Source: Planctomycetota bacterium
GTDB taxonomy: Bacteria; Planctomycetota; UBA11346
Length of the DNA: 20,125 bases
Assembly (NCBI GenBank): GCA_038213805.1
Contig: JBBQSO010000090.1
Coordinates: 1-20,125, forward strand
Direction of reading: 5' to 3'
In this document: in pieces, positions 1,804 through 20,125 of the stretch
How positions within the stretch are numbered: position 1 is the stretch's first letter
Layout of the letters: each line of letters begins with the position of its first letter
Made by a program: the position numbers and the translations under genes
The notes under the pieces: model-generated
Told to the model about the DNA's origin: nothing
The model's input: the letters and a program-made list of their open reading frames with translations, nothing else
Databases searched by the model: none

Positions 1804-1921
1804 GCTGCGACGACGACGCTTGCGCATATTCTTCACGCCGCCTTGACCGGCAGTGGTGAGGCTGGCTGAGCGCAACCACCAAGGCGGGCCCCGCGGGCGC
1901 TGCCGACCGCCGAGGAATTCC

Positions 1922-3313
<1,392 letters not shown>

Positions 3314-3318
3314 GCGGC

Positions 3319-3972
3319 GTGGACCTGCCCGACCTGCTGCCGCTGTTCCCGCTGCCCGGGCACGTGCTGCTGCCCGGCCTGGCGGTGCCGTTCCGCATCT
3401 TCGAACCGCGCTACCGCGCACTGGTGCGCGACCTGTTGGCGGTGCGCGCGGAGCGGCGCTGGCTGGCGGTGCCCTGCCTCGCGCCCGGTAGCGATCCGGC
3501 CGCGGACGCGCCGCCCTTCCTGCCACTCGCGGCCGCCGCACTGCTGCGCGAAGCGCGTGGCCTGGAGGGGCTCGGCCACCCCGGCGAGTTCCTGATCGTG
3601 GTCGAGGGCCTGGTGCGCTGCCGGTTGCGCGAGGAGGCGGACCCCACCACGCCCTACCGCTGGGCCCGTCCGCAGGTGCTGCCCGACCTGGCCGTGGCCG
3701 GCGATCTTGACGCGGCGCTGTCCGGCCTGGTCGACCAGGTGGCGCGCCTCGGCCGCCGCCTCGGCGCGGGTGCCGACCAGCTCATGGGCCTGCTCGAAAA
3801 TCGCGACGAACGCTTCGCCGACCGCCTCGGCGCGCTGCTCATTGCCGAACCGGCCGAGCGCCAGGACTTCCTCGCCTGCCTGGACCCGCTGGCCCGCGCG
3901 GCGCGGATCGCCGCCGTGCTCACCACCCTCGAGCGGCGCACCCGGGGCGGGCGTGAACCGTCGGCCAATTGA
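3319..3972 (+). CDS. LON peptidase substrate-binding (N-terminal) domain protein
   Basis: LPLFPLPGHVLLPG...FRIFEPRYRALVRD signature and ERQDFLACLDPLARA helix. No AAA+ or protease domain. GTG start 5 nt after the sthA stop. Confidence 0.88.
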   Translation: MDLPDLLPLFPLPGHVLLPGLAVPFRIFEPRYRALVRDLLAVRAERRWLAVPCLAPGSDPAADAPPFLPLAAAALLREARGLEGLGHPGEFLIVVEGLVRCRLREEADPTTPYRWARPQVLPDLAVAGDLDAALSGLVDQVARLGRRLGAGADQLMGLLENRDERFADRLGALLIAEPAERQDFLACLDPLARAARIAAVLTTLERRTRGGREPSAN

Positions 3973-4062
3973 GCGCAACCCGCGACCGTGCCGCGCTCTG
4001 ACGTCAGGCTGGGGGGAATTCCCGCAACGTCCCACGCGGACGTGCGTCATCCTGTCCTGACC

Positions 4063-6441
4063 ATGCGTGGCACGCTGCCCATCCTCCTGCTCGCCTTGCT
4101 TGCCGTCGGTGCACCCGGCTTGGCCGCGGGCGAGGCCAACGCCAGTGTCATGGCCGCCAGCGCGACGGCCGGGGCGAAGCCCACCCCGGCCCCAGTCCAG
4201 GTGATCGTGATCGCCGCGCCTCTCACCACCCTGGTGCCCTGCCCCGATCCGGTTCCGGCCGGCGGCGGCATGCTGCGCGCGATCATCGAGGTCCCCGCCG
4301 ACGCACCGGCCGATCTCGGGGTCGGCGCCTACATCGCCGACCGCCACGGCCGCTGGTTCCAGCGCGCACGTCCGGGCGTGCTGGGACCGGGACGCCACGT
4401 CCTGGAGTTCGCGCTCGGCGGCGACGCCGCGCTGCTCAGCGAGCCTGCGCCCACCGCCTGGACCCCGGCCGACGCGGCGCTCGCCGCGCAGGCCGGCCTC
4501 TACCTGTGGTCGGCCGGGGCGAGCCGCACCCAGCTGCGCATCAGTGGTTTGGCCATGAGCGCGGCGCCGACGACGGCGCCGCCGCGCAGCGGCCGGCTCA
4601 CCTGCCTGACGCTCGGCGACTACGCGGCCGCAACCGGCAGTGCGCACGCGCGCACCGGCGAACGCTGGGCGCTCAGCGTGCTGCCCGAGCCGTTCCCGGC
4701 CAACCCCTACGATCCCGCCGAGTTCGCCCTCGACGCGGTGTTCACCGCGCCCGATGGCACCGAGCAGCGCGTCCCCGGCTTTGCGCGCGAGCCCATCCTG
4801 CTGCGCGACCGCGGCGACCGCGAGGACGCGGTGCCGGACGGGCCGACTGCCTTCGCGGTGCGCTTCCGTGCGCGTACGCCCGGCACCTGGCACGTCCGCC
4901 TGGAGGCGCGCTGGGGCGCCGGTCGCACGGTCACCAGCCGGCTGCCGGATCTCGCGGTCGCGGGCGCGCCGTGGGACGGCTACGCGCGGGTCGATCACGA
5001 CGATCCGCGTTTCTTCAGCGTCGGCGGCGCCTTTCACTGGCCGATCGGGCTGAACCTGAACTCCGCCTACGACCTGCGCTCGCGCGACCGCCTCGCCACC
5101 AAGCTGACCCCCGACCGCGGCACGCTCGCCTACCTGCCGCGCATGGCGCGCTTCGCCGCCGCCGGCGGCGACCTCGTCGAGATCTGGATGTCGAGCTGGA
5201 ACCTGGCGCTGGAATGGCGCGCCGACTGGCCCGGGTTCGCCGGCATCGGGCGTTACAACCAGGGCAACGCCGAACGCCTCGACCGCATCCTTGATGAGGC
5301 GTGGCGGCTGGGCATGCGCGTCAATCTGGTGATCAACAATCACGGCCAAGCGTCGCCGCAGGCCGACCGCGAGTGGAAGGACAACCCGTTCAATACCGCC
5401 AACGGCGGTCCCCTGACCGACCCCTACGCGGTGTTCACCGATCCGCGCGCATTCGCCTACCAGGAACGCCTGCGCCGCTACCTGGTCGCGCGCTACGCCG
5501 ACCACCCCGCGGTGTTCGGCTGGAAGCTGTGGTCGGAGGTCAACCTCACCGCCGCCGGCGACATGCGTCGCGGTGGCGGCAACATCTCCGACGCCGAGCG
5601 CCGCGAGACCCTGCTGCGCTGGCACGAGGCCGCCGCCGCGCGCTGGCACGCCCTGGACGGCTACGGCCACGGCGTCACCACGCACTGGGCCGGCGACTAC
5701 CGCCGTCCCGACCGCGCCATCGTCGCCCTGCCCGGCATCGATTACGTCTGCATCGACGCCTACCACGGGCAGAACCGTCGACCCGCGGGCGGGATCGATG
5801 GCCTGCTGACCGCGCCCAACACCGGCGACCTCATCGTCAACCTGCTGTGGCAGAGCACCCAGGACTCCAACAACGGTCTGGCGCGCTTCAACAAGCCACT
5901 GGTCGTCACTGAGTACGGCGCCTCGAGCCAGGGCGGACCGCCGCCGCAGATGCTCGCCGAGTCCGCGTCGGGCGACTGGGCCGGGCTGGTCAGCGGCCAC
6001 GGTGCGGCGCCGATGCTGTGGTGGTTCGAGTGGGTCGACCAGGGCGAGCACTGGCAACCCTACCGGGCGATCGCGCGCTTCCTGCAGGGCGAGGACCTGC
6101 GTGGGGCGCAGGCGCACAGCGTGGTGCTGGCGGCGACCAGCGCCCAGGGCGATCTGTGGACGCGCGCCTGGGCGCGGCCGGGACGCATGCTCGGCTACCT
6201 CGCGGACAGCCAGTGGGCGTGCACGGGCGAAGGCGCGGCGCTCCACCCCCAGGCCAGCATCCAGATCGGCACCCAGATCGCCGCCGGTGACTGCCTGGTG
6301 CAGTGGTGGAACGCCGACAGCGGCGAGGTGTTGGCGACGGAGACCATCGCGCACCCCGGCGGCGCGCTGGTCCTGGCTGCGCCAGCGTTCGCGCGGCACC
6401 TCGCGTTCAAGCTCATCCGCAACGTGGTGACGTCGCCCTGA
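4063..6441 (+). CDS. Secreted DUF5060-domain / GH5-like (clan GH-A) glycoside hydrolase
   Basis: Signal peptide MRGTLPILLLALLAVGAPGLAA. DUF5060-like NPYDP...AVFTAPDG...VPGF...VRF...PGTW. TIM-barrel motifs YLVARY...WKLWSEVN (acid/base Glu) and KPLVVTEYG (nucleophile Glu). Confidence 0.75.
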   Translation: MRGTLPILLLALLAVGAPGLAAGEANASVMAASATAGAKPTPAPVQVIVIAAPLTTLVPCPDPVPAGGGMLRAIIEVPADAPADLGVGAYIADRHGRWFQRARPGVLGPGRHVLEFALGGDAALLSEPAPTAWTPADAALAAQAGLYLWSAGASRTQLRISGLAMSAAPTTAPPRSGRLTCLTLGDYAAATGSAHARTGERWALSVLPEPFPANPYDPAEFALDAVFTAPDGTEQRVPGFAREPILLRDRGDREDAVPDGPTAFAVRFRARTPGTWHVRLEARWGAGRTVTSRLPDLAVAGAPWDGYARVDHDDPRFFSVGGAFHWPIGLNLNSAYDLRSRDRLATKLTPDRGTLAYLPRMARFAAAGGDLVEIWMSSWNLALEWRADWPGFAGIGRYNQGNAERLDRILDEAWRLGMRVNLVINNHGQASPQADREWKDNPFNTANGGPLTDPYAVFTDPRAFAYQERLRRYLVARYADHPAVFGWKLWSEVNLTAAGDMRRGGGNISDAERRETLLRWHEAAAARWHALDGYGHGVTTHWAGDYRRPDRAIVALPGIDYVCIDAYHGQNRRPAGGIDGLLTAPNTGDLIVNLLWQSTQDSNNGLARFNKPLVVTEYGASSQGGPPPQMLAESASGDWAGLVSGHGAAPMLWWFEWVDQGEHWQPYRAIARFLQGEDLRGAQAHSVVLAATSAQGDLWTRAWARPGRMLGYLADSQWACTGEGAALHPQASIQIGTQIAAGDCLVQWWNADSGEVLATETIAHPGGALVLAAPAFARHLAFKLIRNVVTSP

Positions 6442-6459
6442 GTGGTCCGCGGAGGCGCG

Positions 6460-6620
6460 AGGGTGGGGAGTGGGGAGTGCGGAGTGCGGAGTGCGGAGTG
6501 CGGAGTGCATAGTGGCCGTCTCCAAGTGGCTGCAGGGGTCTGGCGAGGATGAGTTCCATCCCAAGCAGAATTCAAGGGTAGCGGGTGCCGCGTCCGAGCG
6601 CACTCCGCACCCCACACTCT
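6460..6620. repeat. Heptamer tract (GGAGTGC)x5 plus 2 degenerate copies, with an inverted degenerate tract downstream
   Basis: Perfect copies at 6474-6508. Reverse-oriented GCACTCC GCACCCC ACACTCT at 6600-6620. A 91-nt unique spacer lies between them. Confidence 0.9.
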
Positions 6621-6751
6621 GACCCGCCCCCCGCGCACCACGTACCCTGTCATCCGACAGCAGGTCGCACCATGCACACGACCCGACGATCATCCTTGCC
6701 CGCCCAGCGAACCGGTGGTACCTCCCCTGCGCGCATCCGCGCGGAGGGGCG

Positions 6752-7678
6752 ATGGCTGGCACCGTTGGCGACCGATCTGGGCAGCCGCCCGCGCCCACCT
6801 TCCTGCGCAGTCCACGCCTGACCGTCGAGATCGCCGCCCCGGGCAGCAGCTATGCCGGCTCGCGTTTCGACTGGTCGAGCTTCATCACCCAGGTGACCCT
6901 GGACGGGCGCCACCGCTTCCTCGCCCCCGAGGCGCAGCGCCCGGGCGTCGGCACCGGCGGCAGCGGCCTGTGTTGCGAATTCGACATCCTCGGGCCCGCC
7001 GGCTTCGCCGAGACCGCAGTCGGAGAGACCTTCCCGAAATGGGGGGTCGGCCTGCTCACGCGTCCCGACGAGCGCCCCTACGACTTCTCCAGGACCTACC
7101 CGATCGCGCCCTTCGCACGCGCCATCACGGCCACCGCCACACGTCTGGAATCCATCACCGAAGCTGAGCCGTGCCGCGGCCTGGCGCTGCGCCTCGAGCG
7201 CGCGCTCGAGGTCGCGGACTGCGATCTGCTCAGTGACGTGACCGTGGTCAACACCGGCACGCGCGCCGTGCACACCCGCGAATACTGTCACAACTTCGCC
7301 GCCATCGACGGCCATGCGATCGGCCCCGACTACCGCCTGGAGCTGTCGCAGCCGCTTCGCATCGACCAGCAGGACCCGTGGTTCAGGAGCACCGGCAGCA
7401 TACTGCACCTGCACCGCCCGGTACCAGCGGGCGCGAACGCCTACGTGTGTGGACCGCTGGACCCGGACCCGGACGGCTTCACCTGGCGACTGGTGCACGC
7501 CCCGAGTGGGGTGTCGGTCAGCGAGCAGGTGCTGTCCGCGCCGGGGCCCGCGCTGTGCGCGGTATGGGCCACCGGCCACGTCATCTGTCCGGAGGTGTTC
7601 ATCGATGCCGTGATCGCGCCCGGCGAGCGGCGTTCGTGGCGCCGGCGCTACGCGTTCGCGGTCGGACTCGAGGCCTGA
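6752..7678 (+). CDS. Conserved hypothetical protein, probable galactose-mutarotase-like (aldose epimerase) fold
   Basis: GGAGG RBS before the ATG. YAGSRFDWS motif, VVNTG...YCHNF, and C-terminal VICPEVF...IAPGERRSWRRRY resemble mutarotase-like beta-sandwich proteins. Lies next to a glycoside hydrolase gene. Confidence 0.55.
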   Translation: MAGTVGDRSGQPPAPTFLRSPRLTVEIAAPGSSYAGSRFDWSSFITQVTLDGRHRFLAPEAQRPGVGTGGSGLCCEFDILGPAGFAETAVGETFPKWGVGLLTRPDERPYDFSRTYPIAPFARAITATATRLESITEAEPCRGLALRLERALEVADCDLLSDVTVVNTGTRAVHTREYCHNFAAIDGHAIGPDYRLELSQPLRIDQQDPWFRSTGSILHLHRPVPAGANAYVCGPLDPDPDGFTWRLVHAPSGVSVSEQVLSAPGPALCAVWATGHVICPEVFIDAVIAPGERRSWRRRYAFAVGLEA

Positions 7679-8052
7679 GTTGGGGCCACCGGTAGCGGTG
7701 CATGCGCCTTGGGCGCTGCGATCACCGGTGGGTGGATCTCGAGCGGGTGGAGGTCCGCGAACGGCACGATCGCCGGATGGGCCTCGCGGGCCTGCACATC
7801 GTCGGCGAACGGCTCGATCACCCGCGGCTCGTCGAGCGGCTGGATCTCGCTGGGGTGCAGGATGGCGGGCACCAGGGCCTGGACATCGCCATCATGGATC
7901 ACCGCCGGCTCGATCTGCTCGGGCTCAAGATCGATCTCCTCCGCCGGAATGAGCAGAAAGTCGATGACTTCGGGACGCTTGGCCGCGCGCAGGCGCAGAG
8001 CGATCATATCGGATCCGGCGAAGACTTCGCGGTTGACCTGACGGCCGTTCAT
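7648..8052 (-). CDS. Small Pro/acidic-rich hypothetical protein with degenerate internal repeats
   Basis: Strongly G/C-ending codons in this frame. TATACT lies 7 nt before the ATG. The 3' end overlaps the convergent gene by 31 bp. Confidence 0.6.
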   Translation of the reverse strand: MNGRQVNREVFAGSDMIALRLRAAKRPEVIDFLLIPAEEIDLEPEQIEPAVIHDGDVQALVPAILHPSEIQPLDEPRVIEPFADDVQAREAHPAIVPFADLHPLEIHPPVIAAPKAHAPLPVAPTQASSPTANA

Positions 8053-8059
8053 CGTTGGC

Positions 8060-8065
8060 AGTATA
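8060..8065 (-). promoter_or_regulatory. -10 box of a probable leaderless transcript
   Basis: Minus strand reads TATACT-GCCAACG-ATG, with no Shine-Dalgarno between the box and the start. Confidence 0.45.
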
Positions 8066-8318
8066 AGCCGCAGCGGCTGTCTGCCAGAGCTGCTTGGGTG
8101 GGCCCGGACAGGGGCGGGACCTCGACGGCTGCGGTGCGGGTGGTTCAGGGTGCGTTCCAGGTCGGGAGGTGGTAGCGGTCCAAGGGATGGGCTCCAGGAC
8201 GACCCGGCCGCCGCCGCGACGGTGTGATATCCGCCTCACCGGAGGGTGGGGCTTTACCCCTGGGGTTGCCGGCTCCCCTCGTCACAAACGGCGCCTTCAT
8301 CATGGCAAGGGCAAGAGC

Positions 8319-9725
8319 ATGACGACGGCCTCCGAAAACCTCCGGTTCATCTGCAACTCCTGCGGCTTCCGGGCACGCATCCCCGCCTCCTACAAGGGTA
8401 AGGTCATCCTCTGCCCTGGTTGCCAGGCGATGAAGATCGTCGCGGCCGACGGCAGCGACCCGACCGGCAGCACCGTGGCGGTGCGCCGCGTCGAGACCGC
8501 GACCACCCCGGTCGGGACCTACAGCACCCCGGACGCCTCAGGCAAGATCCGCTTCACCTGCAGCGCGTGCGGCTACCTCGCCAAGCTGGGCATCCACTAT
8601 GCCGGCAAGGCCATCGCCTGCCCCTCCTGCGAGTCCCCCCAGCTCATCCCCCCCCTGGCGCCCACCGCGGTCGCCGCGCCCAAGGCCGAGATCGAACTGG
8701 CCCTGGACCTGAGCGCACCCGAAGCGGCCCCTGCGCCCGTGGCCAGATCCGCTCCAGCAGCGCAGCCCGCGCCCGTCGCCCCCGCCGCAGTCGCGGACGC
8801 TGACTTCTCCTTGGACGAGCCTGAAACCAGGGCCAAGCCCGATCTCGCGGACAAAGCCGCGCTGCGCACCCCTGCCAACGTTCTGCCGACCAGCCGCGCC
8901 GACGAGCCTGCCGCCGTCACCGGACCCGCTCTGGAGGAGTTGATGGAAGCGACCCCCGCCCCCGCCCCCGCGCCGCTCAAGCCGGCGGTCACGCCGATCC
9001 GGCGCGGCAAGCCAGCCGCACCTGCTCCAGCGGCCCCGGTCGCTCAGCCGCCGACTCCCAAGCCCAAGACCGGCGGGGTGGTGCGCCGTGGCGCCAAACC
9101 GGTCGATGCGGACGAGGACGAGGTCGGCGACGAGGACGCCGACGGCACCGACACCCCGCCCGCCAAGCCGAAGGTGTCGGTCAACCCACGCGGCGGGAGC
9201 GGTTCGCTGATCGACCAACTCAAGCAGCCACCCGCACTCTACGTGACCATCATCGCCGCCGTGACCACGGTGCTGATGGTCGCCTTCATGATCCTCTGGC
9301 GGCTCAGCGCCGGTGCCGCCGCGACCGAGCACGAGCGCGCCGACAAATTTTCCGGCGAGTTCGAGACCGCGTCCAAGGCCCACCGCACCGCCGTGCTCGA
9401 ACGCGATGGTCAGGCCAGCGAGTTGCAGCAGACCAATGCCAAGCTCGAGGCGGCCCTGGCCGCCGGCAAGAAGACGGCGGCCGCGCTCGCCACCGCCGAG
9501 TCCGAAAGCCAGGCCGCGAAGGCCGATGCCGATGGCGAGCGCACCCAGCGCAAGGCCGCCGAGGGCAAACTCGATGCCGCCCTGGCCAAGGCCGCCAAGG
9601 CCGAGGTGGATCGCGACGAGACGCTGCGCCAGCTGCTCGAGAAGATGAAGGCGCTCAAAGAGGAGACCGCCATGCGCAAGCAGTTCCAGGATCGCGTCAA
9701 GGAACTGGACGCGAAGACCAAGTAG
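8319..9725 (+). CDS. Double zinc-ribbon / Pro-Ala linker / single TM / coiled-coil protein
   Basis: Two CxxC...CPxC ribbons (FICNSCG...LCPGCQ; FTCSACG...ACPSCE), a long P/A-rich linker, TM LYVTIIAAVTTVLMVAFMILW, and an A/K/E-rich coiled-coil tail. Confidence 0.8.
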   Translation: MTTASENLRFICNSCGFRARIPASYKGKVILCPGCQAMKIVAADGSDPTGSTVAVRRVETATTPVGTYSTPDASGKIRFTCSACGYLAKLGIHYAGKAIACPSCESPQLIPPLAPTAVAAPKAEIELALDLSAPEAAPAPVARSAPAAQPAPVAPAAVADADFSLDEPETRAKPDLADKAALRTPANVLPTSRADEPAAVTGPALEELMEATPAPAPAPLKPAVTPIRRGKPAAPAPAAPVAQPPTPKPKTGGVVRRGAKPVDADEDEVGDEDADGTDTPPAKPKVSVNPRGGSGSLIDQLKQPPALYVTIIAAVTTVLMVAFMILWRLSAGAAATEHERADKFSGEFETASKAHRTAVLERDGQASELQQTNAKLEAALAAGKKTAAALATAESESQAAKADADGERTQRKAAEGKLDAALAKAAKAEVDRDETLRQLLEKMKALKEETAMRKQFQDRVKELDAKTK

Positions 9726-9768
9726 ACGGTCCCCGGCGGGCATCTACGCTCCGCCCCCGGAGAGCTCC

Positions 9769-10281
9769 ATGCGCACGCGCCTGATCCTGGCCCTGCTCGG
9801 CACCGCCGCCTGCGCGACGGGCGCCGAACGCCCGCCGTTCTACCTCGATGGCGGCTGGGGCTACCCCGCGCACGGCGACACCCGCGCCGCGACCACGCCG
9901 CACGGCTACCACATCGGCGCCGGCTACGCGGACAACGAGACCGGGCTGGTCGGCTACCCCGCGGTCGACTTCGATTGGACGCACTGTTCCGGCCCGGGCG
10001 AGAACAAGATGGACATCTACAGCATCGACTACGCCGAGCGCGTGCCGATCAGCGACGGGTTCTACGTCGGCGCCGGTCTCGGCACCTACTACGAGAAGGT
10101 CAACATCGTCGATCCCGACGGCACCACGCACGGCGGCAAGGCCCTGCGCATCGGCGGCCGCGCCATGGCCGGCATCGGCATCAACGACATGGTCTTCGTG
10201 GAAGGCACCTACTTCTACAGCGGCAAGATCGGCGGCGTCGAGACCAGCGTGGTCGCGGTGTGCCTTGGCATCTGGTTCTGA
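9769..10281 (+). CDS. Outer-membrane beta-barrel protein (small OmpA-TM/OmpW-like)
   Basis: GGAG RBS, signal peptide, alternating aromatic/Gly strands (FYVGAGLG, VFVEGTYFY), and C-terminal LGIWF BAM signal. Confidence 0.8.
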   Translation: MRTRLILALLGTAACATGAERPPFYLDGGWGYPAHGDTRAATTPHGYHIGAGYADNETGLVGYPAVDFDWTHCSGPGENKMDIYSIDYAERVPISDGFYVGAGLGTYYEKVNIVDPDGTTHGGKALRIGGRAMAGIGINDMVFVEGTYFYSGKIGGVETSVVAVCLGIWF

Positions 10282-10294
10282 GCGGACGGGACCC

Positions 10295-11254
10295 GTGAGC
10301 CAGCCCCAGGGCTTCGACCAGCGCGACGACCAGTCCGACCGCGCGCTGCGGCCGAAGCGCCTGGCCGACTTCACCGGCCAGGTGCCGGTGACGCGCAATC
10401 TCAGCCTGGCGATCCAGGCGGCGCGCCAGCGCAAGGAACAGCTCGACCACGTGCTGCTCTCCGGCCCCCCCGGGCTCGGCAAGACCACGCTCGCGCACAT
10501 CATGGCCGCGGAGATGGGCGCCGAGATCCGCGAGACCGCCGGCCCGCTGATCGAGAAGCCCGGCGACCTCGCCGGCATCCTCTCGTCGCTCAAGCAAGGC
10601 GCGGTGCTGTTCATCGACGAGATCCACAGCCTCAAGCGCGTGGTCGAGGAATACCTCTATTCCGCGATGGAGGATTTCCGCATCACCATCCAGCTCGGCG
10701 AGGGCGCGACCACGCGCGAGGGCCAGCTGTCGGCGCCGTTCCGCTCGCGCTTCGGGATCCGCGAGCGCCTCGACCTGTACTCGCCCGACGAACTCGGCCG
10801 CATCCTGGCGCGCTCCGCGACGCTGCTCGGGGTCGCGGCCGACGCGCCCGGCCTGGCCACCATCGCGCGGCGCAGCCGCGGCACCGCGCGCTACGCCAAC
10901 AACCACCTGCGCCGCATCCGCGACCTCGCCCAGGTCGCGTACGGCAACCGCATCGACGTCGCCGTCGCCGATGAAGGCCTGGCCATGCTCGGCGTCGACC
11001 CCGCTGGCCTCACCGAACTCGACCGCCGCATCCTCGGCTGCCTCGCCACCCACCGCCGCGCCGTCGGCCTCAAGACCGTGGCCGTGACCGTCGGCGAGGA
11101 CGAGGCCACCATCGAGGACATCTACGAGCCCTTCCTGATCCAGAGCGGCTACCTGGTCAAGACGCCGACCGGGCGCCTGCTGACCGTGAAAGCCTATCAG
11201 CACCTCGGCCTCACGCCGCCCGAGGCCGACGAGAACCAGCAGCGCCTGTTCTGA
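10295..11254 (+). CDS. ruvB: Holliday junction branch-migration helicase RuvB, with an in-frame ~17-aa internal deletion
   Basis: LRPKRLADFTGQ, Walker A GPPGLGKTTLA, Walker B LFIDEIH, ATTR sensor 1, RFGI Arg finger, and winged-helix VGLKTVA...TIEDIYEPFLIQ...TPTGR. 319 aa. Confidence 0.95.
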   Translation: MSQPQGFDQRDDQSDRALRPKRLADFTGQVPVTRNLSLAIQAARQRKEQLDHVLLSGPPGLGKTTLAHIMAAEMGAEIRETAGPLIEKPGDLAGILSSLKQGAVLFIDEIHSLKRVVEEYLYSAMEDFRITIQLGEGATTREGQLSAPFRSRFGIRERLDLYSPDELGRILARSATLLGVAADAPGLATIARRSRGTARYANNHLRRIRDLAQVAYGNRIDVAVADEGLAMLGVDPAGLTELDRRILGCLATHRRAVGLKTVAVTVGEDEATIEDIYEPFLIQSGYLVKTPTGRLLTVKAYQHLGLTPPEADENQQRLF

Positions 11255-11375
11255 GCGCGCGTTCCTGCCATTGGCAAGCCCAGTGCGTACCCCTGCCCAG
11301 GGCCTTCCGGCCCCCCGGCAGGCGTGGTGTGCCCCGCCATCCGTGCCGTGAAACCCCGCAGGCGCTGACGTGTCC

Positions 11376-12011
11376 ATGGCCTTTCCCCCTTCCGGTACGC
11401 GTCCCCCGCCCTCGGTCGGCGCCCTGGTGCGCGCGATCAGCGATGAAGCGATCGCCGCCGAAGAGGCGCTGCACGCCATGCCGCAGGCCGTTTTCATGCA
11501 TCTGCCGAAACCCAAGCCGATCATTTGGATCCTGACCATCTTCGCAGGCGGGCTGGCGCTGATCGTCGCCGCCCTGACGTTGACCATGGTGCGGGCCTGG
11601 TACGAGCTGGGACCGGCGATCGCGCAGCGGGAACTGGCCCTGACGCACCCCGCGCCGCCACCCCTGCCGACCGACGCAGGACTGCTCGACGACGAGATCA
11701 CCGCCCTTTACCTGAAGTCCCAACCCACCGCCACCGCGCGGCTGTTCCGCGCCCGCGCCCACGCCCTGCGGGCGCACGGCGACCTCGAGGGCGCGATCGC
11801 CGCTTGGCTGGAGATCAAGGCGCGCGTGGTGCCGTGGAGCGGCGAGGACCGCCTCGGCTTAGCCGAGGCGCTGGCCGCGTGCGGCCACACGGGCGAGGCC
11901 ATCGCCGTGCTGCGCGCCGTGCCACTCGCCATGCAGGCGCCGGAGACGCGCAGTGCGGTGCTGGCGCTGTTGACGCGCTGCCAGCTGACGGCGCGGTCGG
12001 TGGATGGCTGA
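11376..12011 (+). CDS. Hypothetical membrane protein with TPR-like C-terminal helices
   Basis: TM IIWILTIFAGGLALIVAALTLTMV. TPR-like RAHALRAHGDLEGAIAAW and LGLAEALAACGHTGEAIAVLR. Alternative GTG start at 11370. Confidence 0.65.
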   Translation: MAFPPSGTRPPPSVGALVRAISDEAIAAEEALHAMPQAVFMHLPKPKPIIWILTIFAGGLALIVAALTLTMVRAWYELGPAIAQRELALTHPAPPPLPTDAGLLDDEITALYLKSQPTATARLFRARAHALRAHGDLEGAIAAWLEIKARVVPWSGEDRLGLAEALAACGHTGEAIAVLRAVPLAMQAPETRSAVLALLTRCQLTARSVDG

Positions 12012-12108: not shown

Positions 12109-12492
12109 ATGCAGACCCAGCCGACCAGCGCGAAGCGCGCCCAGAAATTAAACCCCGCCATCCGAGGCCGCGCCCTCATAGATGACTGGCAGCGATCGGG
12201 CCTGTCCCGAAGCGCTTTTGCTCGCGAGCGCCAGGTCGGCGCCCATCTGGTGAGCTATTGGGCAAAGCGAATGGGCGTGTCCAAGCCGCCCTCACCAGCC
12301 GAAGTCACGCCCGCCATCGACTTCATCCAGGTGCCGTTCGTTCCTACGGAATCGGCGATGCCACCGCCCGCGACCGTGAGTCCGTCAATCGAGATCCTTT
12401 TCCCGCGCGGCGTGGTGCTGCGCGTCAGACCCGGCGTCGATGCCGCCTTCTTGCAGACCGTGGTCACCGCCCTGGAACACGTCCGATGCTGA
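12109..12492 (+). CDS. tnpA: IS66 accessory protein TnpA (HTH)
   Basis: WQRSGLSRSAFARE...SYWAKR HTH, FIQV, and IEILFPRGVVLRV...DAAFL. Overlaps the tnpB start. Confidence 0.88.
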   Translation: MQTQPTSAKRAQKLNPAIRGRALIDDWQRSGLSRSAFARERQVGAHLVSYWAKRMGVSKPPSPAEVTPAIDFIQVPFVPTESAMPPPATVSPSIEILFPRGVVLRVRPGVDAAFLQTVVTALEHVRC

Positions 12493-12890
12493 CCTTCGGC
12501 GACACCCGGCGGATCTTCCTGGCGCGCCAATCCACCGACATGCGCAAGGGCTGTGCGTCATTGGCCGCCGTGGTCGAGAATGCCCTTGGCCAAGATCCCT
12601 ATGCCGGCGACATCTTTGTCTTCGTCGGCAAGCATAAGAACCGCGTCAAGATCGTCGCCTGGGATCGCTCAGGCTTCTGGCTGTGTTCGAAACTCTTGGA
12701 GCAAGGCACGTTCGCCGTTCCAAAAGGCGCTGCGGTCGAAAACGGCGCCGGCACCATGCCGCTGTCACCCGCCCAGATCCAGATGCTCCTCGAAGGGATC
12801 GATGTGCACCACGCGACGTACCACGCGCATTACCACCGACCACCAGCCCCGGAACCGGAACTGGTATCGACACCGACGCTCAGCCCATGA
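12486..12890 (+). CDS. tnpB: IS66 accessory protein TnpB
   Basis: TDMRKG...L...DP..GDIFVF...RVKIVAWDRSGFWL..KLLEQGTF...LLEGID signature. Confidence 0.93.
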   Translation: MLTFGDTRRIFLARQSTDMRKGCASLAAVVENALGQDPYAGDIFVFVGKHKNRVKIVAWDRSGFWLCSKLLEQGTFAVPKGAAVENGAGTMPLSPAQIQMLLEGIDVHHATYHAHYHRPPAPEPELVSTPTLSP

Positions 12891-12913
12891 TCAAACGCAC
12901 TCATTTTACCGTG

Positions 12914-12940
12914 TTGACGCTCTTTACGCGCTGGTATAGT
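12914..12940 (+). promoter_or_regulatory. Possible internal extended -10 promoter for tnpC
   Basis: TTGACG (12914-12919), 15 nt, TATAGT (12935-12940) with a TGn extension; 9 nt before ATG 12950. Confidence 0.35.
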
Positions 12941-12949
12941 GGCGTCATC

Positions 12950-14614
12950 ATGTCGATGGCCGAACGAGTGACGACGCTGACCAAGGCCCTGGCGGCAGAA
13001 ATTCTCCGCCGGCAACAGGCTGACGCAGACAACAGCACGCTGCGTGCGCACCTTGCCTCCATTGGTGCCCCAGCTGATTTGGTGATCGAGAATGCCGCGC
13101 TGCGCGCCCAGGTGGCCGACTTCATCGAGAATTTGGAGGTCATGACCTACCGCATGGCCAGGATGACTCGCCGCGTCTTCGGCACCTCGAGCGAGACTCA
13201 CCATCCGGGTCAACAGCACCTCGACGAGATCATGCGCCAGATTCTGGTAGAGACTGAGCTGCGGCCGGATGACTCGACCGCCGCCACGAAGGCGAATGCC
13301 GGTTCGACGACGGCGACCGTTGCACCATCAGCTTCTGATGCGGCGAGGCCGGGACCAGCTAAGCCACGCACCAAGCGCCGCGGCCGGCTCTCCCTCCCCG
13401 ACACGCTGCCGATCGAAGAGCGGTCCATGGAACTTCCTGAGTCCGAGCGCATCGGCCCAGACGGGAAGCCATTGCCGCAGATCGGTACGCGGATCGTCGA
13501 GAAGCTCGACTACTTCCCCGCCTGGTTCCGGCGCCTGCGTTTGATCTATGCCATCTACGGCTCGCCCTTCAGCGATGCGCAGCGGATCTCGGCCGCGCCC
13601 ATGCCCTGCATCGTGCCCAAGGGTCTGCCCACCGACACCACCGTGGCTATGGTCCTGGTGGAGAAGTACGATCTCCACTGCCCATTGTACCGGCAGGAGA
13701 CGAAGCTGGAGCGTGCCGGCATCGATCTTGGCCGTTCCACTCTGATGAACTGGGTGCGGCATGGGGCTACCGCCTTACTGCCCATCCAGGCGGCCATCGG
13801 CCAGTCCATCCGCCAGAGCCCGGTGATCGGGATGGATGACACCTGGATCAGAACACTGGATCCCGGGGCCGGGAAGACGCATCTCTCCCGGCTCTGGGGC
13901 TACTACGCCGACGACGAGTTTTACTGTGACTACCGACGCACCAGAGAGGGGAAGTGGCCCGCCGAGTTCATGCGCGACTACCGGGGCGTTCTCATGGCTG
14001 ACGCGTATTCCGGGCACCATCGGCTCTTTGCCGACGGGCTCATGACACCCGCGGCCTGCATGGCGCATGCCCGGCGGAAGTTCGAGGAGGCATTGGAGGC
14101 CGGTGAGCTGATGGCGTCCCAGGCCCTCGACCACTTCTCGCTGCTCTACCGCATTGAGCGCGAGACCGCTGCACACACCGCGGATCAGCGGCTGCGCCGC
14201 CGCCAAGCAGAGGCGATTCCCATCCTGGATCGATTGGAGAGGCTGGTCATCGCCTGGGAGACTGACCAACGGCACTCGAGCGGTCTCTACGGTGCTGCTC
14301 ACTACACCCGCAAGATCTTTCAGAACCTGCGCACCTATACGACCGACGGGCGGATCCCGATCGACAACAACGATCTGGAGCGTCTCTGGCGTCAGCCCAG
14401 TCTCAACCGGAAGAACTCACTCTTTGTGGGATCTGATCGCGGCGGCACCTGGGCGGCGACGATGTTCAGCATCTGCCAGAGTTGCCGACTCGTTGATCTG
14501 GATCCCTACAAGTACCTGGTCGAGATGTTTGCGCAGCTCCACACCGGGCGGACGGATTTTGCTAACCTGCGGCCCAAGGCGTGGGCGGGACGGTTGGTGG
14601 CACGGACGGCATGA
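12950..14614 (+). CDS. tnpC: IS66 DDE transposase TnpC
   Basis: Leucine zipper plus VFGTSSE, KYDLHCPLYRQ, MDDT, ADAYSGH, CMAHARRKF, PIDNNDLER, RKNSLFVGS, DPYKYL...LRPKAW. Alternative start at 12887 (ATGA overlap with tnpB). Confidence 0.95.
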   Translation: MSMAERVTTLTKALAAEILRRQQADADNSTLRAHLASIGAPADLVIENAALRAQVADFIENLEVMTYRMARMTRRVFGTSSETHHPGQQHLDEIMRQILVETELRPDDSTAATKANAGSTTATVAPSASDAARPGPAKPRTKRRGRLSLPDTLPIEERSMELPESERIGPDGKPLPQIGTRIVEKLDYFPAWFRRLRLIYAIYGSPFSDAQRISAAPMPCIVPKGLPTDTTVAMVLVEKYDLHCPLYRQETKLERAGIDLGRSTLMNWVRHGATALLPIQAAIGQSIRQSPVIGMDDTWIRTLDPGAGKTHLSRLWGYYADDEFYCDYRRTREGKWPAEFMRDYRGVLMADAYSGHHRLFADGLMTPAACMAHARRKFEEALEAGELMASQALDHFSLLYRIERETAAHTADQRLRRRQAEAIPILDRLERLVIAWETDQRHSSGLYGAAHYTRKIFQNLRTYTTDGRIPIDNNDLERLWRQPSLNRKNSLFVGSDRGGTWAATMFSICQSCRLVDLDPYKYLVEMFAQLHTGRTDFANLRPKAWAGRLVARTA

Positions 14615-14895
14615 GGCGGTAGCATGCATGGACGCTCCCAATGCTATTGAGAAATTCGATTAGCTGGGAGATTCCGCGTCGCGCCGCAATTGCCCTCGCA
14701 TCGCAATAGACGCGGGAAAGCAAGTAAGCGTATCCTAATGGATTTCGGCGCATAGCTCCCAGGGAATACATGGCTGACTTGCACGGCTGCTAGAAATCGT
14801 AGTACCAGCCAAGCCACCAGGCTGCATGAGCATCTCCCTCATGTGCCCAACCGACCAGTTTCACGACGATCTGATCATCGCTTGGCTGCCGCGAG

Positions 14896-15102
14896 TCAAT
14901 GAGTGGTATGAGTTCCGAGCGCGGAGGATCGCAGCGTTCTCCAGTCGTCCAATGAGCACACTACACCGTACCATCTCTGTGTGAACAGTTTCCAAGCTTC
15001 ACAAGAATGCTGGGATTCACGCCAGCGAAAGAGGTTTTCGTCAGGCAGGCGAGGATTTCTCACCATGCTTTGTAACGAGGATGGTGATGCTTCGTAAGCC
15101 AT
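14896..15102 (-). CDS. Small hypothetical protein (68 aa)
   Basis: Strong SD AAGGAG, 6 nt, then ATG (MAYEASPSS...). No recognisable motif. Confidence 0.45.
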   Translation of the reverse strand: MAYEASPSSLQSMVRNPRLPDENLFRWRESQHSCEAWKLFTQRWYGVVCSLDDWRTLRSSALGTHTTH

Positions 15103-15217
15103 GGTTTGCTCCTTGCGGCATACATCGCCGTTACCCTCCAATGATATCCGCCCCAAAATGAAATCTACCTGGCATTGCGATTCCAATCTGGATGCGATTG
15201 TTTATGACCGCATCACC

Positions 15218-15742
15218 ATGGCATCAATGGCTTCAGTACTGACCGTCGAGGATCCCGTTTCTGGGCGACGAGTCCGCCTGATGACATCCGACACTGCCGG
15301 GTGGCAGGTCCGCATCACCACTCCGATTTCCGGTGGAAGCATTCGCCTCCAACGCATTCCGCATCACCATCCACGCGATGCCCTGGATTCGTTCCGACGG
15401 ACTCTCACAGAAATGGGCATTACCGATGATACTCGAGCGCTCGACCTGGTCCGTGACTGTCTGAGTGCCTTCCTCCATGGACGACCCGGATTCCGGGCGC
15501 ACTGTCTGGCCCTGCGCCTGCGAATGAATGAAGTCGCCGAACGCATGGCTTCTCAACGCATCGCGCTGGCCCATGGTCTGCGAGCCGTCACTGCTCTGGC
15601 ATTGGAACGTGGCCTCCACCTCGCTGACGGTGCGGACCCTTCGTGGCTCACCCGTCTCATCGCACTCGTGGACTCTGGTGCATCCCATGAGGTCCTCCTG
15701 GAGAACCAGCTCACCCTCATCTTACAGGGGCTCACCATCTAA
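15218..15742 (+). CDS. Hypothetical protein (helical C-terminal half)
   Basis: Open frame of ~174 aa from ATG 15218 (or 15227), divergent from the small minus-strand ORF. No family recognised; start uncertain. Confidence 0.55.
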   Translation: MASMASVLTVEDPVSGRRVRLMTSDTAGWQVRITTPISGGSIRLQRIPHHHPRDALDSFRRTLTEMGITDDTRALDLVRDCLSAFLHGRPGFRAHCLALRLRMNEVAERMASQRIALAHGLRAVTALALERGLHLADGADPSWLTRLIALVDSGASHEVLLENQLTLILQGLTI

Positions 15743-15846
15743 TCGCAGACCCATGGGAATTGGGCCGAGTTGCCTCCACAGCCCCTAAGTAGCCAGGTTG
15801 ACACAGCCAACCGTCGCCAGACCTTAGGGGTCTCATTGGAGCCCCT

Positions 15847-16377
15847 ATGACCATCCGTCACCTGTTCCTCTTCACTTCCCTTGCGCTCTCCCTGGGCCTC
15901 GTCCTCACCGGCTGCGGCAGTGGTGGCGGCGGCGGCAGCGGTTCTGGCACCTCTGGTGGTACGACCACTCCTCCTCCAGCACGCACGGCCGTCAACTGGT
16001 CCGTCCAGAATCCTGACATCACAGGCGCCGTAGTTGGCCATCAGGTCCTGGTTTCGGGAGCCGCAGCCGTCTTGTTTCCTGTCGGATCAACTCCGCCCAC
16101 GGGCCCCATCACCATTTCATTCACCCTGAATGGCTCAGTCCTCCCTCTCACCGAGACCGCAACCTTCACACAGGCATTCGACACTGGACATCAACCCGTC
16201 CCCAACCTGTTTGTTCTCCAGTTTGCGAATCACCCACTTTTCAATGCTGCCTCGACCGGCACCTTCTCACTGAAAATCACCTTTGACTCGACTGGGATTC
16301 TCGACGACTCCCCTACACTCGGTAACCAGCGCTTCACCACCGTCCCGATCGTTGTCGCCCCGGCGGGAACGGTCTGA
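15847..16377 (+). CDS. Lipoprotein with Gly/Ser tether and beta-rich domain
   Basis: GGAG RBS, signal peptide II with lipobox LTG-C, then GSGGGGGSGSGTSGG linker and beta-strand-rich sequence. Confidence 0.8.
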   Translation: MTIRHLFLFTSLALSLGLVLTGCGSGGGGGSGSGTSGGTTTPPPARTAVNWSVQNPDITGAVVGHQVLVSGAAAVLFPVGSTPPTGPITISFTLNGSVLPLTETATFTQAFDTGHQPVPNLFVLQFANHPLFNAASTGTFSLKITFDSTGILDDSPTLGNQRFTTVPIVVAPAGTV

Positions 16378-16384
16378 TTGACCT

Positions 16385-16451
16385 GACAGCGGGTGTTGGC
16401 CGAAAATCCATAGTGGATTCGATCACCACCGCGCGGGCCACGCCCGCTGTC
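16385..16451. other. Long inverted repeat / stem-loop between convergent genes (possible bidirectional terminator or processing structure)
   Basis: GACAGCGGGTGTTGGCC pairs with GGCCACGCCCGCTGTC; an inner AATCCA-TAG-TGGATT hairpin is present; no clear U-tract. Confidence 0.5.
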
Positions 16452-16524
16452 TTCGCTCTAATGCACTTGAGCCTCATTTTTCCGCGCAGACCAATAGGTG
16501 AATTCTAACGAAAGCATCCCCCTG

Positions 16525-17022
16525 TCATTGGATGTCGTCGAGCGGATTCCCCGACGCCAGGTCAATCAGTTGCCAGCGGAAGCGGGTGCCGTGGTCGAAT
16601 ATCGTCACGCGCACACCTGACGTGCGGATAGTAAGACTGAGATTGGGATCCGCAGCTGGCGCAGCATCTACCAGGACCGGTCGCGCCCATTCGAGGGTGA
16701 CCGTATCCCGATTAGCCTTCGCCGACGTCGGCTTCCCAAGCAGGCGAATCGCATTGCGGTGATTCAGGAGAGGATACGCCAGGAAGGCGCTGAACTCCGA
16801 CCGGTGGAAGCACCCCTGAATGGCTGGCGCCGGCACGGTTGGATTCCCAGGGGGGAGCATGATGGGCGATGGGTCACCCTGTCCGATGGTCATCCACCAC
16901 GCCGGCTGGCCGACATCCGCAAGCCACCGCGCACGATCTCCCCCGAATGGATCCACTGCCTCCGCTGCAGACATCGAGGAAACGCATCCCGCGATCACAA
17001 GAAGAATTGCAGTTATATTCAT
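16525..17022 (-). CDS. Putative secreted hypothetical protein
   Basis: GGAG RBS, signal peptide MNITAILLVIAGCVSSMSA, and an LLGKP motif loosely reminiscent of SmpA/BLIP-like folds. Confidence 0.6.
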   Translation of the reverse strand: MNITAILLVIAGCVSSMSAAEAVDPFGGDRARWLADVGQPAWWMTIGQGDPSPIMLPPGNPTVPAPAIQGCFHRSEFSAFLAYPLLNHRNAIRLLGKPTSAKANRDTVTLEWARPVLVDAAPAADPNLSLTIRTSGVRVTIFDHGTRFRWQLIDLASGNPLDDIQ

Positions 17023-17123
17023 GCGCGTCTCCAGGTTTCCACTGTCTCGGATGATGGATAGATCGCTGCCCGTCGCAGGACTCGCTAGGATTCATGTAAC
17101 CTATCGCCACGCTTCGTTTGTGC

Positions 17124-18698
17124 TCACGCTGCCAGTCGCAACCGGATCCCGAACTGCGCAGCGACGATCGCAGCCGCGACAGGCGGATACACGGAATTAC
17201 CAATCCGCGCGGTCTTCTGCCTCTTGGTGCCAGTCAGGATATAGTTCCGGCCAAAACCCTGCGCTCCTGCCAGCTCTTCGGCCTCAAGCATGCGAAGACC
17301 AATGTCGGTGATCAGGTACTCCTCTCCCTCGAGCGTCACCGTGACCAAGCCGAAGCATGCGCCTTGCCGGATGGTGTGGAGGGGATCGTCCAGCCCTTGG
17401 GCCGTCCCGCCCGTGCCATAGTATTTAGTGAGGAAGGCTGCAACGAGTGCGGCTTTGCTTCCGCCGGCGACGACCGTTCCCAGAGGCTGTCTGATATCGA
17501 GAGCTCTCGGTGCCTGGCCGACACGCTCACCATAGCCCGTCTGGACCAGGGTCATCGCAGCCAGTGCGTTGTGATCCCATTTCGTGATGGTCGGCAGTGG
17601 ATCGGTGAGCGACTTGCAGTGATGCTGACGGTTTTCCAGACTTCCGTAGTATTTCGACAGGAATGCCGCGACCCGCGCGGGGTGATTGCCCTGCGCCAAA
17701 GTGGTGGTCAGCGGATCATGGACCCCATTCCGTTGATCGTCACCATGACTCAGGCGCTCGAGACGGGGTGCCACGAGACCATGCCGCTGCTTCTGGGTTA
17801 CCGTCGACAACGGCTCGCCAACCGACGATGACCCTCGCCGGTTGCTCTGCTGGTCAATCGTGACGATGAAGGGATTGCCGCTGAGAACGTAGCGAACCAT
17901 ACCGGCCGCCACGCGTCGACAGGTAGCATCGGCAAGGGGCTTCTTGCGCTCAAAAATGCTCGGACATCGCAAGGACCAGTCGATGATGTCGGCAGCCGGC
18001 CGCCAGGCCTCCGCTCGCCCCTTCCCATGCGTAGGCACTGGCCAGACAATCGGTGCGCCATCCCGCCGCGCCACGAGGAATAGCCGCTTACGAATGGTCG
18101 GTACACCGTAGTCGGCAGCAACCATGGTTCGCCATTCGACCGAGTACTTCAACGCACGGAGACGGTCGACAAACCGCTTGAAGGTTTCACCGGCTCTCGC
18201 GGGATCAGGAACACGAATGGGCTTGCCATCCTTGGGATCACGAAGGTAGTCGCCCTGCGCGTCGCGCGCGTACATCAACGGTCCCCAGCTCAGAAACTCG
18301 GGAACGTTCTCAAGGAAGATGACGCGCGGTGCGACTTTTGCTGCCCACCGGCATCCAATCCAGGCCAATGCCCGCACACTGGGCGAAACCGGCGCCGATC
18401 CCTTCGCACGGGAGAAATGCCGATAATCTGGGCTCAACCACAGGGCCCCGACAGGAACGCCTTTGGTTGCCTCTTCCGGCCTGACATCGTAGATGCTCTC
18501 GCAGTAGTGGCACGTGGCCGGGTGATTGGCTTCGTGCATTTGGATCGCATGCGGATCATGATTAATCGCGATGTCTGGACTCCGACCCAGTGCGAGCTCG
18601 ATTCCAAGCGAGGCACCGCCGCCCCCTGCGAATAGATCGACGATGAGCTCTCCGCACAGAACTCCGCCGATTCCTGGGATTTGGAGCTGCTTGCTCAT
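17124..18698 (-). CDS. Phage-type C5 DNA cytosine methyltransferase homologue, catalytic Cys replaced by Tyr
   Basis: Motif I DLFAGGGG, motif IV WLSPD(Y)RHFSRAKG, motif VI ENVPEF, motif VIII PTIRKRLF, repeated xPLxT(I/V) units in the variable region, and DIGLRML...AQGF...IGNSV motifs IX-X. Confidence 0.92.
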   Translation of the reverse strand: MSKQLQIPGIGGVLCGELIVDLFAGGGGASLGIELALGRSPDIAINHDPHAIQMHEANHPATCHYCESIYDVRPEEATKGVPVGALWLSPDYRHFSRAKGSAPVSPSVRALAWIGCRWAAKVAPRVIFLENVPEFLSWGPLMYARDAQGDYLRDPKDGKPIRVPDPARAGETFKRFVDRLRALKYSVEWRTMVAADYGVPTIRKRLFLVARRDGAPIVWPVPTHGKGRAEAWRPAADIIDWSLRCPSIFERKKPLADATCRRVAAGMVRYVLSGNPFIVTIDQQSNRRGSSSVGEPLSTVTQKQRHGLVAPRLERLSHGDDQRNGVHDPLTTTLAQGNHPARVAAFLSKYYGSLENRQHHCKSLTDPLPTITKWDHNALAAMTLVQTGYGERVGQAPRALDIRQPLGTVVAGGSKAALVAAFLTKYYGTGGTAQGLDDPLHTIRQGACFGLVTVTLEGEEYLITDIGLRMLEAEELAGAQGFGRNYILTGTKRQKTARIGNSVYPPVAAAIVAAQFGIRLRLAA

Positions 18699-18943
18699 TG
18701 CTTCTCCAGGCCGGAGTGCTGTGGCTGAGAGCTAATGGGCCCTAAGGCAGTTAAGCATTGGCGCATGGCCACGGTATGCCGTTTGGTGAGCTCAGGATCA
18801 TCCCAAGAACGTCGGCGCTCCTGGTAGGCCTCGTTCACCTCGATTTGTAGCACAGTGGGCAATCGCGGCCAACATGCGCAGCACACCAGGTGCCAGAGCT
18901 TATCTTTCGTGAGACCACAACGGCAGCGCAGGGTGGCAGGCAT
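18695..18943 (-). CDS. Small Cys-rich phage-like protein (possible Zn-binding)
   Basis: CRC...VCCACWPRLP motif, GAGG RBS before ATG 18943, and ATGA overlap with the methyltransferase start (translational coupling). Confidence 0.65.
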   Translation of the reverse strand: MPATLRCRCGLTKDKLWHLVCCACWPRLPTVLQIEVNEAYQERRRSWDDPELTKRHTVAMRQCLTALGPISSQPQHSGLEKQ

Positions 18944-19023
18944 GGGGGAAATCCTCACGTCAGGTCGGGGTGGCTACTCGCAAAGTCAGGCTGCTAGCCC
19001 GAGGAAGCACTCAGGCGACGCCC

Positions 19024-19512
19024 CTAGAACGGCGGCTCATCCCCAGCCGACAGCGTCCCCGAAGCCAGCGGCTGCGCCCGCTCGGCATTGGTGCGGTTCT
19101 CCTGGACTCCGGTGGCACTATCGCCAGAGGCATCGCCCCCGGTTGCGCCATCGTCCTGCTGCGACCGCGAACCACCGTCGCTTTTCGGGCTGAGGAACTG
19201 GATGCTGTCGGCGACCACCTTCAGTTTGCTACGCTTCGAGCCGTCCGCTTCGTCCCACTTGTCGAGCTTGAGACGGCCCTCGAGGTAGACGAGCTTCCCC
19301 TTGGTGAGGAACTGACCGGCGAGCTCGGCCGTACGCCCCCAGGTCTCGATGTCCACGAAGGTGACCTCTTCCTTCACCTGGCCATCGTTTCCCTTGAAGC
19401 GCCTGTTGATGGCGATGCCGAAGTTAGCCACCGCCTGCTCGTTGGAAAGAAAACGGACCTGCGGGTCGCGGGTGAGATTGCCGGCGAGCATGACTTTATT
19501 GAGATTGAACAT
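19024..19512 (-). CDS. ssb: Single-stranded DNA-binding protein
   Basis: LNKVMLAGNLTRDP OB-fold start, FVDIETWGRTAE, KGKLVYLEGRL, and acidic tail DEPPF. Confidence 0.96.
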   Translation of the reverse strand: MFNLNKVMLAGNLTRDPQVRFLSNEQAVANFGIAINRRFKGNDGQVKEEVTFVDIETWGRTAELAGQFLTKGKLVYLEGRLKLDKWDEADGSKRSKLKVVADSIQFLSPKSDGGSRSQQDDGATGGDASGDSATGVQENRTNAERAQPLASGTLSAGDEPPF

Positions 19513-19566
19513 GGGTTTTTCCGTGAGAAATGAGTGATGGATGGAGTGACGAAGGAAGGGGAGAGG

Positions 19567-20124
19567 TCAGATGATGAAGTGTTGATCGCGGAGGAAGTCC
19601 TCCAGGACGTCCCTCTGGGCCATTGGAAGGGCATCTGCGGCCGAGGCCCAGATATCGCGGAGAAGGTCTTCAGCACGCATAAGCAGGTCGATGGGGTCGA
19701 CGCGACGGGATGTCATGGCACCGGACCGCGTAATCCCATGCAGGGTGAACTCGGGCCCCGAAAGACTCAGAATGATCGTCTGCAGACCATCCAGTGCGGA
19801 CGCATACAGCAGTTGGAGATCATGAAGGGGAACGGAGGAGACGAAGTCATCGATCGTCGCATCACGTCCCGGTGGGTTGGTTGCATATACTGGCGGAATG
19901 CTGGAGTCTCGCAGTCCGATGGTCATCGCGCCGCGGTGGTACACCCATTCGATTTGCTGCCCAGACTCGATGGCCATGTGCATGATGTGCTGGTCAAGCG
20001 GAACCCGGACTCGGGTGGTTGATTCGAACGGAGAACGAGAGTCGTCGTGTAGCTCTGCCGGCCCCCTTGACCCCTGCGCTCGCCGGGCCTGATCGCCGTG
20101 GGCGAAGGGACCGAGGCATGGGTG
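19567..20124 (-). CDS. Hypothetical protein, possibly 5'-truncated by the window edge
   Basis: The ORF 19567-19983 frame has no stop up to the window end (...HPCLGPFAHGDQARR...PLDQHIMHMAIESG), and it is co-directional with ssb. Confidence 0.55.
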   Translation of the reverse strand, partial: HPCLGPFAHGDQARRAQGSRGPAELHDDSRSPFESTTRVRVPLDQHIMHMAIESGQQIEWVYHRGAMTIGLRDSSIPPVYATNPPGRDATIDDFVSSVPLHDLQLLYASALDGLQTIILSLSGPEFTLHGITRSGAMTSRRVDPIDLLMRAEDLLRDIWASAADALPMAQRDVLEDFLRDQHFII

Positions 20125-20125
20125 A

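Follow-up and report, generated by a model that had tools for sequence, protein, structure and literature searches.

RuvB is the AAA+ motor of Holliday-junction branch migration. Point substitutions in the β-hairpin of E. coli RuvB reportedly impair its interaction with RuvA and leave the fold intact. In passages of PMC9477746, the pre-sensor-1 (PS1) β-hairpin is described as the docking site of RuvA domain III and as the hallmark of the PS1-insert superclade, and the contact of domain III at this hairpin is described as acting on the ATPase cycle. The hairpin passages of PMC10071043 concern the C-terminal hairpin and not the PS1 hairpin.

Here, a ruvB gene with an in-frame deletion was analyzed in a 20,125-nucleotide stretch of DNA from an uncultured Planctomycetota bacterium. 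This whole stretch is called the window, and positions given without a contig name refer to it. The features discussed are:

10295..11254, forward strand: ruvB coding sequence with an in-frame 51-bp deletion (from translation, Pfam and PDB matches)
10679..10702, forward strand: codons for RITIQLGE, the first strand of the PS1 β-hairpin, left without its partner strand (from AlphaFold2 models)
10703..10713, forward strand: lone remaining copy of the 11-bp repeat GGCGCGACCAC, the deletion junction (from the DNA alignment, gap lists and contigs of public runs)

The ruvB gene and its missing segment

The ruvB frame runs from a GTG start at 10295 to a TGA stop at 11254 and consists of 319 codons plus the stop, corresponding to a protein of 319 aa. 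Its Pfam domains are, in order, RuvB_N (PF05496; 3.4e-57, 193 bits with a cut-off of 27), AAA_lid_4 (PF17864; 73.8 bits) and RuvB_C (PF05491; 69.9 bits). The RuvB_N match was split into two stretches, the best of which spans profile positions 1-120 of 159. Solved RuvB structures in the PDB were matched with E-values from 5e-90 to 3e-73. Compared with the RuvBs of Pseudomonas aeruginosa (7x7q/6blb), E. coli (9dx3), Thermus thermophilus (1hqc/1ixs) and Streptococcus thermophilus (7pbl), the window protein has the same three Pfam domains and the same Walker A/B, sensor 1, arginine finger and sensor 2 positions, and a RuvA partner is also encoded in its genome. Unlike every other RuvB examined, it is without 17 residues that comprise the hairpin turn, the second strand of the PS1 β-hairpin and the first half of strand β4.

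When P. aeruginosa RuvB (7x7q) was aligned using HMMER, two stretches were obtained, in which query residues 9-148 correspond to chain residues 15-154 and query residues 137-310 to chain residues 160-335. Query G137 was thus placed on both chain residue 143 and chain residue 160 and, therefore, 17 residues are absent from the window RuvB. The full-length RuvB of the nearest relative aligned without gaps to E. coli chain 9dx3_A (336 aa). In the numbering of this chain the lost segment covers about 142-158 or 143-159 and includes I148 and I150; its exact boundary is ambiguous because of the repeat. An earlier note on this DNA had proposed that RuvB is short by 17 aa in frame (319 + 17 = 336) and that Ile148 and Ile150 are in the missing segment, and both proposals are confirmed by these alignments. 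On the DNA level, exactly 51 bp are missing after 10702 in comparison with the two nearest relatives.

The other ATPase motifs, which had been said to remain, are indeed retained. Columns G57-T64, D108, E109, H111, A138, T139, T140, R152 and R199 are invariant in alignment A1, and we take them to be the Walker A motif GPPGLGKT, the Walker B motif DEIH, the sensor-1 threonine (ATT), the arginine finger and the sensor-2 arginine. With the gap excluded, the protein is 99% and 97% identical to the RuvBs of the two nearest relatives, and the flanks of the gene are syntenic with a relative over window positions 310-12008. The gene is a ruvB by descent, and it is the structural features of a working RuvB that fail.

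The surroundings of the gene contain further features. At 8094-9725 on the forward strand, an ORF encodes an Ala/Pro-rich protein with weak N-terminal zinc-ribbon matches below the Pfam cut-offs; several indels of 6-9 bp were found here in comparison with the relatives G003 and G010, and it is, apart from the junction, the only indel-rich part of the aligned region. Synteny with G003 stops at 12008, just ahead of an IS66-family element that was identified by Pfam scan on the forward strand at 12109-14614. This element consists of a small ORF (12109-12492), an IS66 Orf2/TnpB-like ORF (PF05717; about 12258-12890) and a DDE_Tnp_IS66 transposase (12683-14614). The remaining part of the window, 14615-20125, is not syntenic with G003 and contains several ORFs without a Pfam match as well as a C-5 cytosine DNA methylase on the minus strand (17124-18698, Pfam scan). 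It may represent a mobile island adjoining the IS66 element.

Structural models and the RuvA partner

Both forms of RuvB were modeled with AlphaFold2 using the same 47-sequence alignment, which resulted in a mean pLDDT of 91.1 for the intact relative and 85.5 for the window protein. In the intact relative, hairpin strand 1 (E123-128, R-I-T-I-Q-L), hairpin strand 2 (E135-140) and core strand β4 (E145-150, T-L-V-G-A-T) were formed and the junction region was modeled with confidence. In the model of the window protein, hairpin strand 1 and β4 were not formed, strand 2 is deleted, residues 129-140 had a pLDDT <50 and no strand was present between E104-108 and E155-158. Residues G131-V147 of the relative have no counterpart in the window protein; they form the hairpin turn, the whole of hairpin strand 2 and the first half of β4. 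The F-T-L-V of β4 is deleted, in agreement with the earlier claim that the core strand ahead of sensor 1 is hit. The window protein thus has no PS1 β-hairpin of the RuvB type, as 17 aa are missing and its second strand with them, and the five-stranded AAA+ core sheet, in which β4 leads into sensor 1, is predicted to be incomplete as well.

The residues that align with I148 and I150 of E. coli RuvB lie in the deleted segment. Unlike the E. coli hairpin point mutants, the lesion in the window also takes away part of the central β-sheet. Since the element for RuvA docking is lost together with part of the ATPase core, the product, if it is made, is most likely non-functional.

As one of its options, the earlier note had suggested that RITIQLG substitutes for the lost strand. 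According to this option the protein would be an evolved, functional RuvB for which the hairpin is dispensable, with RITIQLG as β4 and a motor that works without RuvA or with another adaptor. The intact frame and the conservation of Walker A, Walker B, sensor 1, the arginine finger and sensor 2 would fit such a protein, but no confident replacement strand was built by AlphaFold2. The location of the gene, which does not adjoin ruvA, would also fit: a Pfam scan of 20 window ORFs gave no RuvA or RuvC domain, confirming the earlier claim that neither ruvA nor ruvC is adjacent. However, contig C105 of the source genome (G000; 180 contigs, 90% complete) encodes a complete RuvA of 201 aa with RuvA_N, HHH_5 and RuvA_C domains. 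RuvA_C, which is the RuvB-binding domain III, scored 33.1 bits with a cut-off of 24, and its retention argues against a RuvB that has dispensed with its hairpin. No second ruvB was found in G000.

RuvA_N was detected in 13 of 15 genomes of the same family, and the two genomes in which it was missed are only 68-70% complete. In the genomes of the same genus that have both genes, ruvA and ruvB are located on different contigs. Among 83 ruvB loci, RuvA was present within the flanks in only three (L039, L075 and L091), all from distant lineages. Separate loci are therefore found family-wide alongside an intact hairpin, and the non-adjacency of ruvA and ruvB is unconnected with the deletion; this also speaks against a functional hairpin-less RuvB.

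The ruvA gene of the source genome (G000:C105:11845-13897, corresponding to L009:45-2097) is divergently paired with a gene for a RarA/MgsA-type AAA+ protein (MgsA_C, 1.5e-62). The same close pairing of ruvA and RarA/MgsA on one contig was observed in six genomes of the genus (G002, G003, G006, G007, G008 and G009).

Other Holliday-junction genes were also searched for. RuvC (PF02075) gave no match in G000, which is 90% complete, nor in any of the 15 same-family genomes, and it was found in 9 of 10 other families of the phylum. The absence of RuvC is a lineage trait that is unrelated to the deletion. RecU was not found in G000. RusA is encoded in G000 (C155:1062-1400) and in 0 of 15 family relatives; its occurrence is sporadic and irrelevant to the deletion. 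RecG (PF17191), a possible back-up for a ruvB-null cell, was not found in G000 by a search for which 14 reference genomes served as a control and yielded RecG in only eight cases.

The deletion junction and its distribution

The loss of DNA between short direct repeats, through replication slippage or microhomology-mediated misalignment, is a classical mutational mechanism. The ruvB DNA of the window was aligned with that of nine relatives, of which L012 and L013 are nearest, with nucleotide identities of 95.7% and 94.1%, respectively. Both read GAG-GGCGCGACCAC-(40 bp)-GGCGCGACCAC-GCGC and thus contain a perfect 11-bp direct repeat with a period of 51 bp. The window reads GAG-GGCGCGACCAC-GCGC, so that one copy of the repeat and the intervening 40 bp are gone. 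This is the classical signature of slippage or microhomology misalignment between short direct repeats. For an arbitrary deletion, an exact microhomology of 11 bp would have a chance of roughly 4^-11 by arithmetic, which is far too low for a coincidence. The earlier note had ascribed the junction to a Gly-Ala microhomology deletion, which is correct in kind and understated in extent, as the repeat comprises 11 bp. As in classical direct-repeat deletions, exactly one copy and the 40 bp in between are lost; nothing is unusual about the window case, and the mechanism of the lesion is the already known, textbook one.

The peptide G-A-T-T occurs twice in the intact protein, at the tip of the hairpin (GEG-ATT) and at sensor 1 (VG-ATT). 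The direct repeat owes its existence to this recurrence and to GC-biased codon use. As its copies are in frame, a deletion between them is automatically in frame as well and is no evidence of selection. The repeat pair was confirmed as perfect for L012 and L013; of the more distant relatives, at least L014 has a pair that is visibly imperfect. On these alignments there seems to be no sign that the pair is kept for a purpose. A phase-variation switch was considered and rejected, on the grounds that a perfect pair was confirmed for L012 and L013 alone and that the pair of L014 is imperfect.

In the alignment with the relative G003, which spans about 11.7 kb, no indel >9 bp other than the 51-bp gap was found. 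The gap is a singular event and not the sign of an indel-ridden assembly.

Between the ruvB genes of the window and its nearest relative, 36.7 synonymous and 4.3 non-synonymous differences were counted (dN/dS 0.038), and dN/dS was 0.088 for the second nearest relative. By these values, purifying selection on ruvB has been strong throughout essentially the whole of its separate history, so the deletion is either very recent or not biological. The value of 0.038 gives no sign of adaptive remodelling, which counts against a functional hairpin-less RuvB.

The 17-aa segment is kept in all 29 ruvB loci of related genomes (same genus, family or phylum), in all 34 loci of species-representative genomes (Planctomycetota or similar MAGs, overlapping with the set of 29) and in all 15 site-spanning loci among 17 fetched from metagenomes. 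The two metagenome loci that were left out are L093, which stops ahead of the site, and L092, which runs into unrelated DNA after G-D-G. In a collection of 5.8 billion clusters, the segment is kept in 119 of 119 other homologues among the matches listed, and the window protein (P0002) forms a cluster of its own with one member on one contig of 20125 bases. The 36-base junction had 0 exact matches in metagenome_contigs, a collection from which the source record itself is perhaps excluded. The search for homologues with the same deletion that had been proposed earlier therefore gave none among the RuvBs examined, and all close relatives carry a full-length RuvB, an outcome that according to the earlier note would reduce the deletion to a strain-level lesion.

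The length of the hairpin region was surveyed in the best 150 representatives of 50% clusters by measuring the stretch from A-M-E-D to A-T-T-R-E-G, which is 20 aa long in the window RuvB. It is 37 aa in 123 of the 150 and 32-55 aa in a further 22. One complete representative (P0249) has 29 aa, and shorter stretches were found only in representatives with cut ends (P0158, P0172 and P0236); in P0122, which carries an internal duplication, the stretch is 202 aa. The natural range of 29-55 aa among these representatives could be seen as favoring a RuvB that functions without its hairpin, but even the shortest hairpin, that of P0249, keeps the core strand F-T-C-I-A-A-T-T, and the deletion is common to no other examined sequence. 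With the evidence on both sides taken together, we regard an evolved, functional hairpin-less RuvB as very improbable. The other two options of the earlier note, a dead or dominant-negative allele and an assembly collapse, are the likelier ones. The deletion is neither a feature of the lineage nor a new kind of RuvB.

Several candidates for a second case were dismissed on inspection. L070 was a false alarm, in which the first G-A-T-T-N had been matched by the regular expression, and it is intact; the loci in which no anchor was found (L021, L065, L068, L075 and L076) are intact as well. Two sequences are of a different nature. The metagenome contig L092 (1900-2463) carries a ruvB relative with 81% identity over residues 1-144 whose similarity to RuvB stops directly behind Q-L-G-D-G, where the window has its junction. 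Unrelated DNA follows, with a gene downstream that, judged by eye, resembles a membrane permease; L092 is a chimeric contig or a truncation. In P0122 (514 aa) the whole N-terminal ATPase part is repeated and the break is inside the hairpin (K-G-P-S-A-R-S), which looks like a tandem duplication or a misassembly.

Public sequencing runs and the possible origin of the deletion

Window positions 10100-11400 were compared with four public sequencing runs, all in the form of assembled Logan contigs, in which rare variants are dropped. Run X1 contained 0.76 of the sampled window words. Its records 1, 2, 3, 6 and 7 match the window with 0 other letters and, therefore, the strain of the window is present in X1. 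Record 3 (337 bases, depth 13.2) was placed on 10633-10713 and on 10703-10918, both with 0 other letters, and contains 40 extra letters between the two placements that are identical to the insert of L012. Over the same 286 positions, the two nearest species have 15 and 16 differences from the window. Since record 3 has 0 differences, it belongs to the population of the window itself and carries the intact gene. The presence of the extra 51 bp in reads had been named earlier as the mark of an artefact; on the level of contigs, these 51 bp are present in X1, with 0 mismatches on both flanks. A strain-identical intact allele also argues against a functional RuvB without hairpin.

The same 40-letter insert was also present in X3 and X20, in contigs of relatives with 18-30 other letters. 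In X2, records 8, 13 and 14 have 0 other letters compared with the window, so that the strain is present in this run, too; X2 is without cover over 10540-10583 and about 10716-10890 and is hence silent on the junction. The deleted junction was found in none of the contigs listed for the four runs, for which 188 further pieces exist. At 10756 the total depth in X1 is 22.0, which equals the sum of two contigs (13.2 + 8.8) and leaves no room for a further contig there. A rare deleted form may be compatible with this depth, as a unitig covering only the junction need not reach 10756. The depth of strain-identical contigs in X1 is low, about 7-13.

The reading that we favor, with about an even chance of being correct, is that of a real, recent slippage allele that coexists with an intact allele. 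The starting point would be an ordinary, RuvA-dependent ruvB of the uncultured planctomycete. Very recently, replication slippage with misalignment between the two 11-bp repeats GGCGCGACCAC would have led to the loss of 51 bp. The deleted allele would then exist alongside the intact allele in the natural population, and the assembly would have happened to follow the deleted path. With the hairpin turn, the second strand (the contact of RuvA domain III) and the first half of β4 lost, the product would most likely be misfolded and non-functional or, at worst, act as a poison subunit. The deletion, the repeat at its junction, its uniqueness, the intact allele between identical flanks and a RuvA elsewhere in the genome are shown by the data; we infer an in vivo origin and a loss of function for the deleted allele, the latter from the structural model and homology. 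The window itself is the sole read or contig in which the deleted junction was seen, which counts against this reading.

A plausible alternative, which we rate somewhat below even, is that no cell carries the deleted gene and that the only ruvB is the intact form of 336 codons. The deletion would then have arisen in vitro, when a polymerase switched templates between the 11-bp repeats while the library was amplified, or in silico, by consensus building or polishing at low coverage. This would agree with the 51 bp in X1 record 3, the sole strain-identical contig that spans the site in a public run, with the singleton status of the deleted protein (one member on one contig), with the 0 matches of the junction 36-mer in metagenome_contigs, with the low depth of the strain-identical X1 contigs and with the nature of the genome as an assembly of 180 contigs that is 90% complete. 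Moreover, if X1 is the source sample, an assembler would normally take the intact majority path. However, products of template switching are normally rare and should not win the consensus, and the 11.7 kb aligned with the relative contain no other indel >9 bp. The word sizes in common use in de Bruijn assemblers exceed 11 bp; since the repeat is shorter than these, a graph collapse in the absence of junction reads should not produce the deletion, which also argues against an artefact.

It is also conceivable, at a very low probability, that the 319-aa protein is made and is not dead, either as a RuvA-independent motor with RITIQLG as β4 or by dominant-negative co-assembly with intact subunits that modulates branch migration in a subpopulation. 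If true, such a protein would act in a lineage that is also without a recognisable RuvC.

The apparent hairpin-less RuvB is a one-off, repeat-mediated deletion that is private to a single metagenome-assembled contig. It calls for caution: an in-frame gap in a conserved gene of a MAG should be compared with relatives and with reads before being called an evolutionary innovation. If the slippage allele is real, it would represent a natural ruvB loss-of-function variant that segregates in a soil or sediment planctomycete population, which would be of minor interest.
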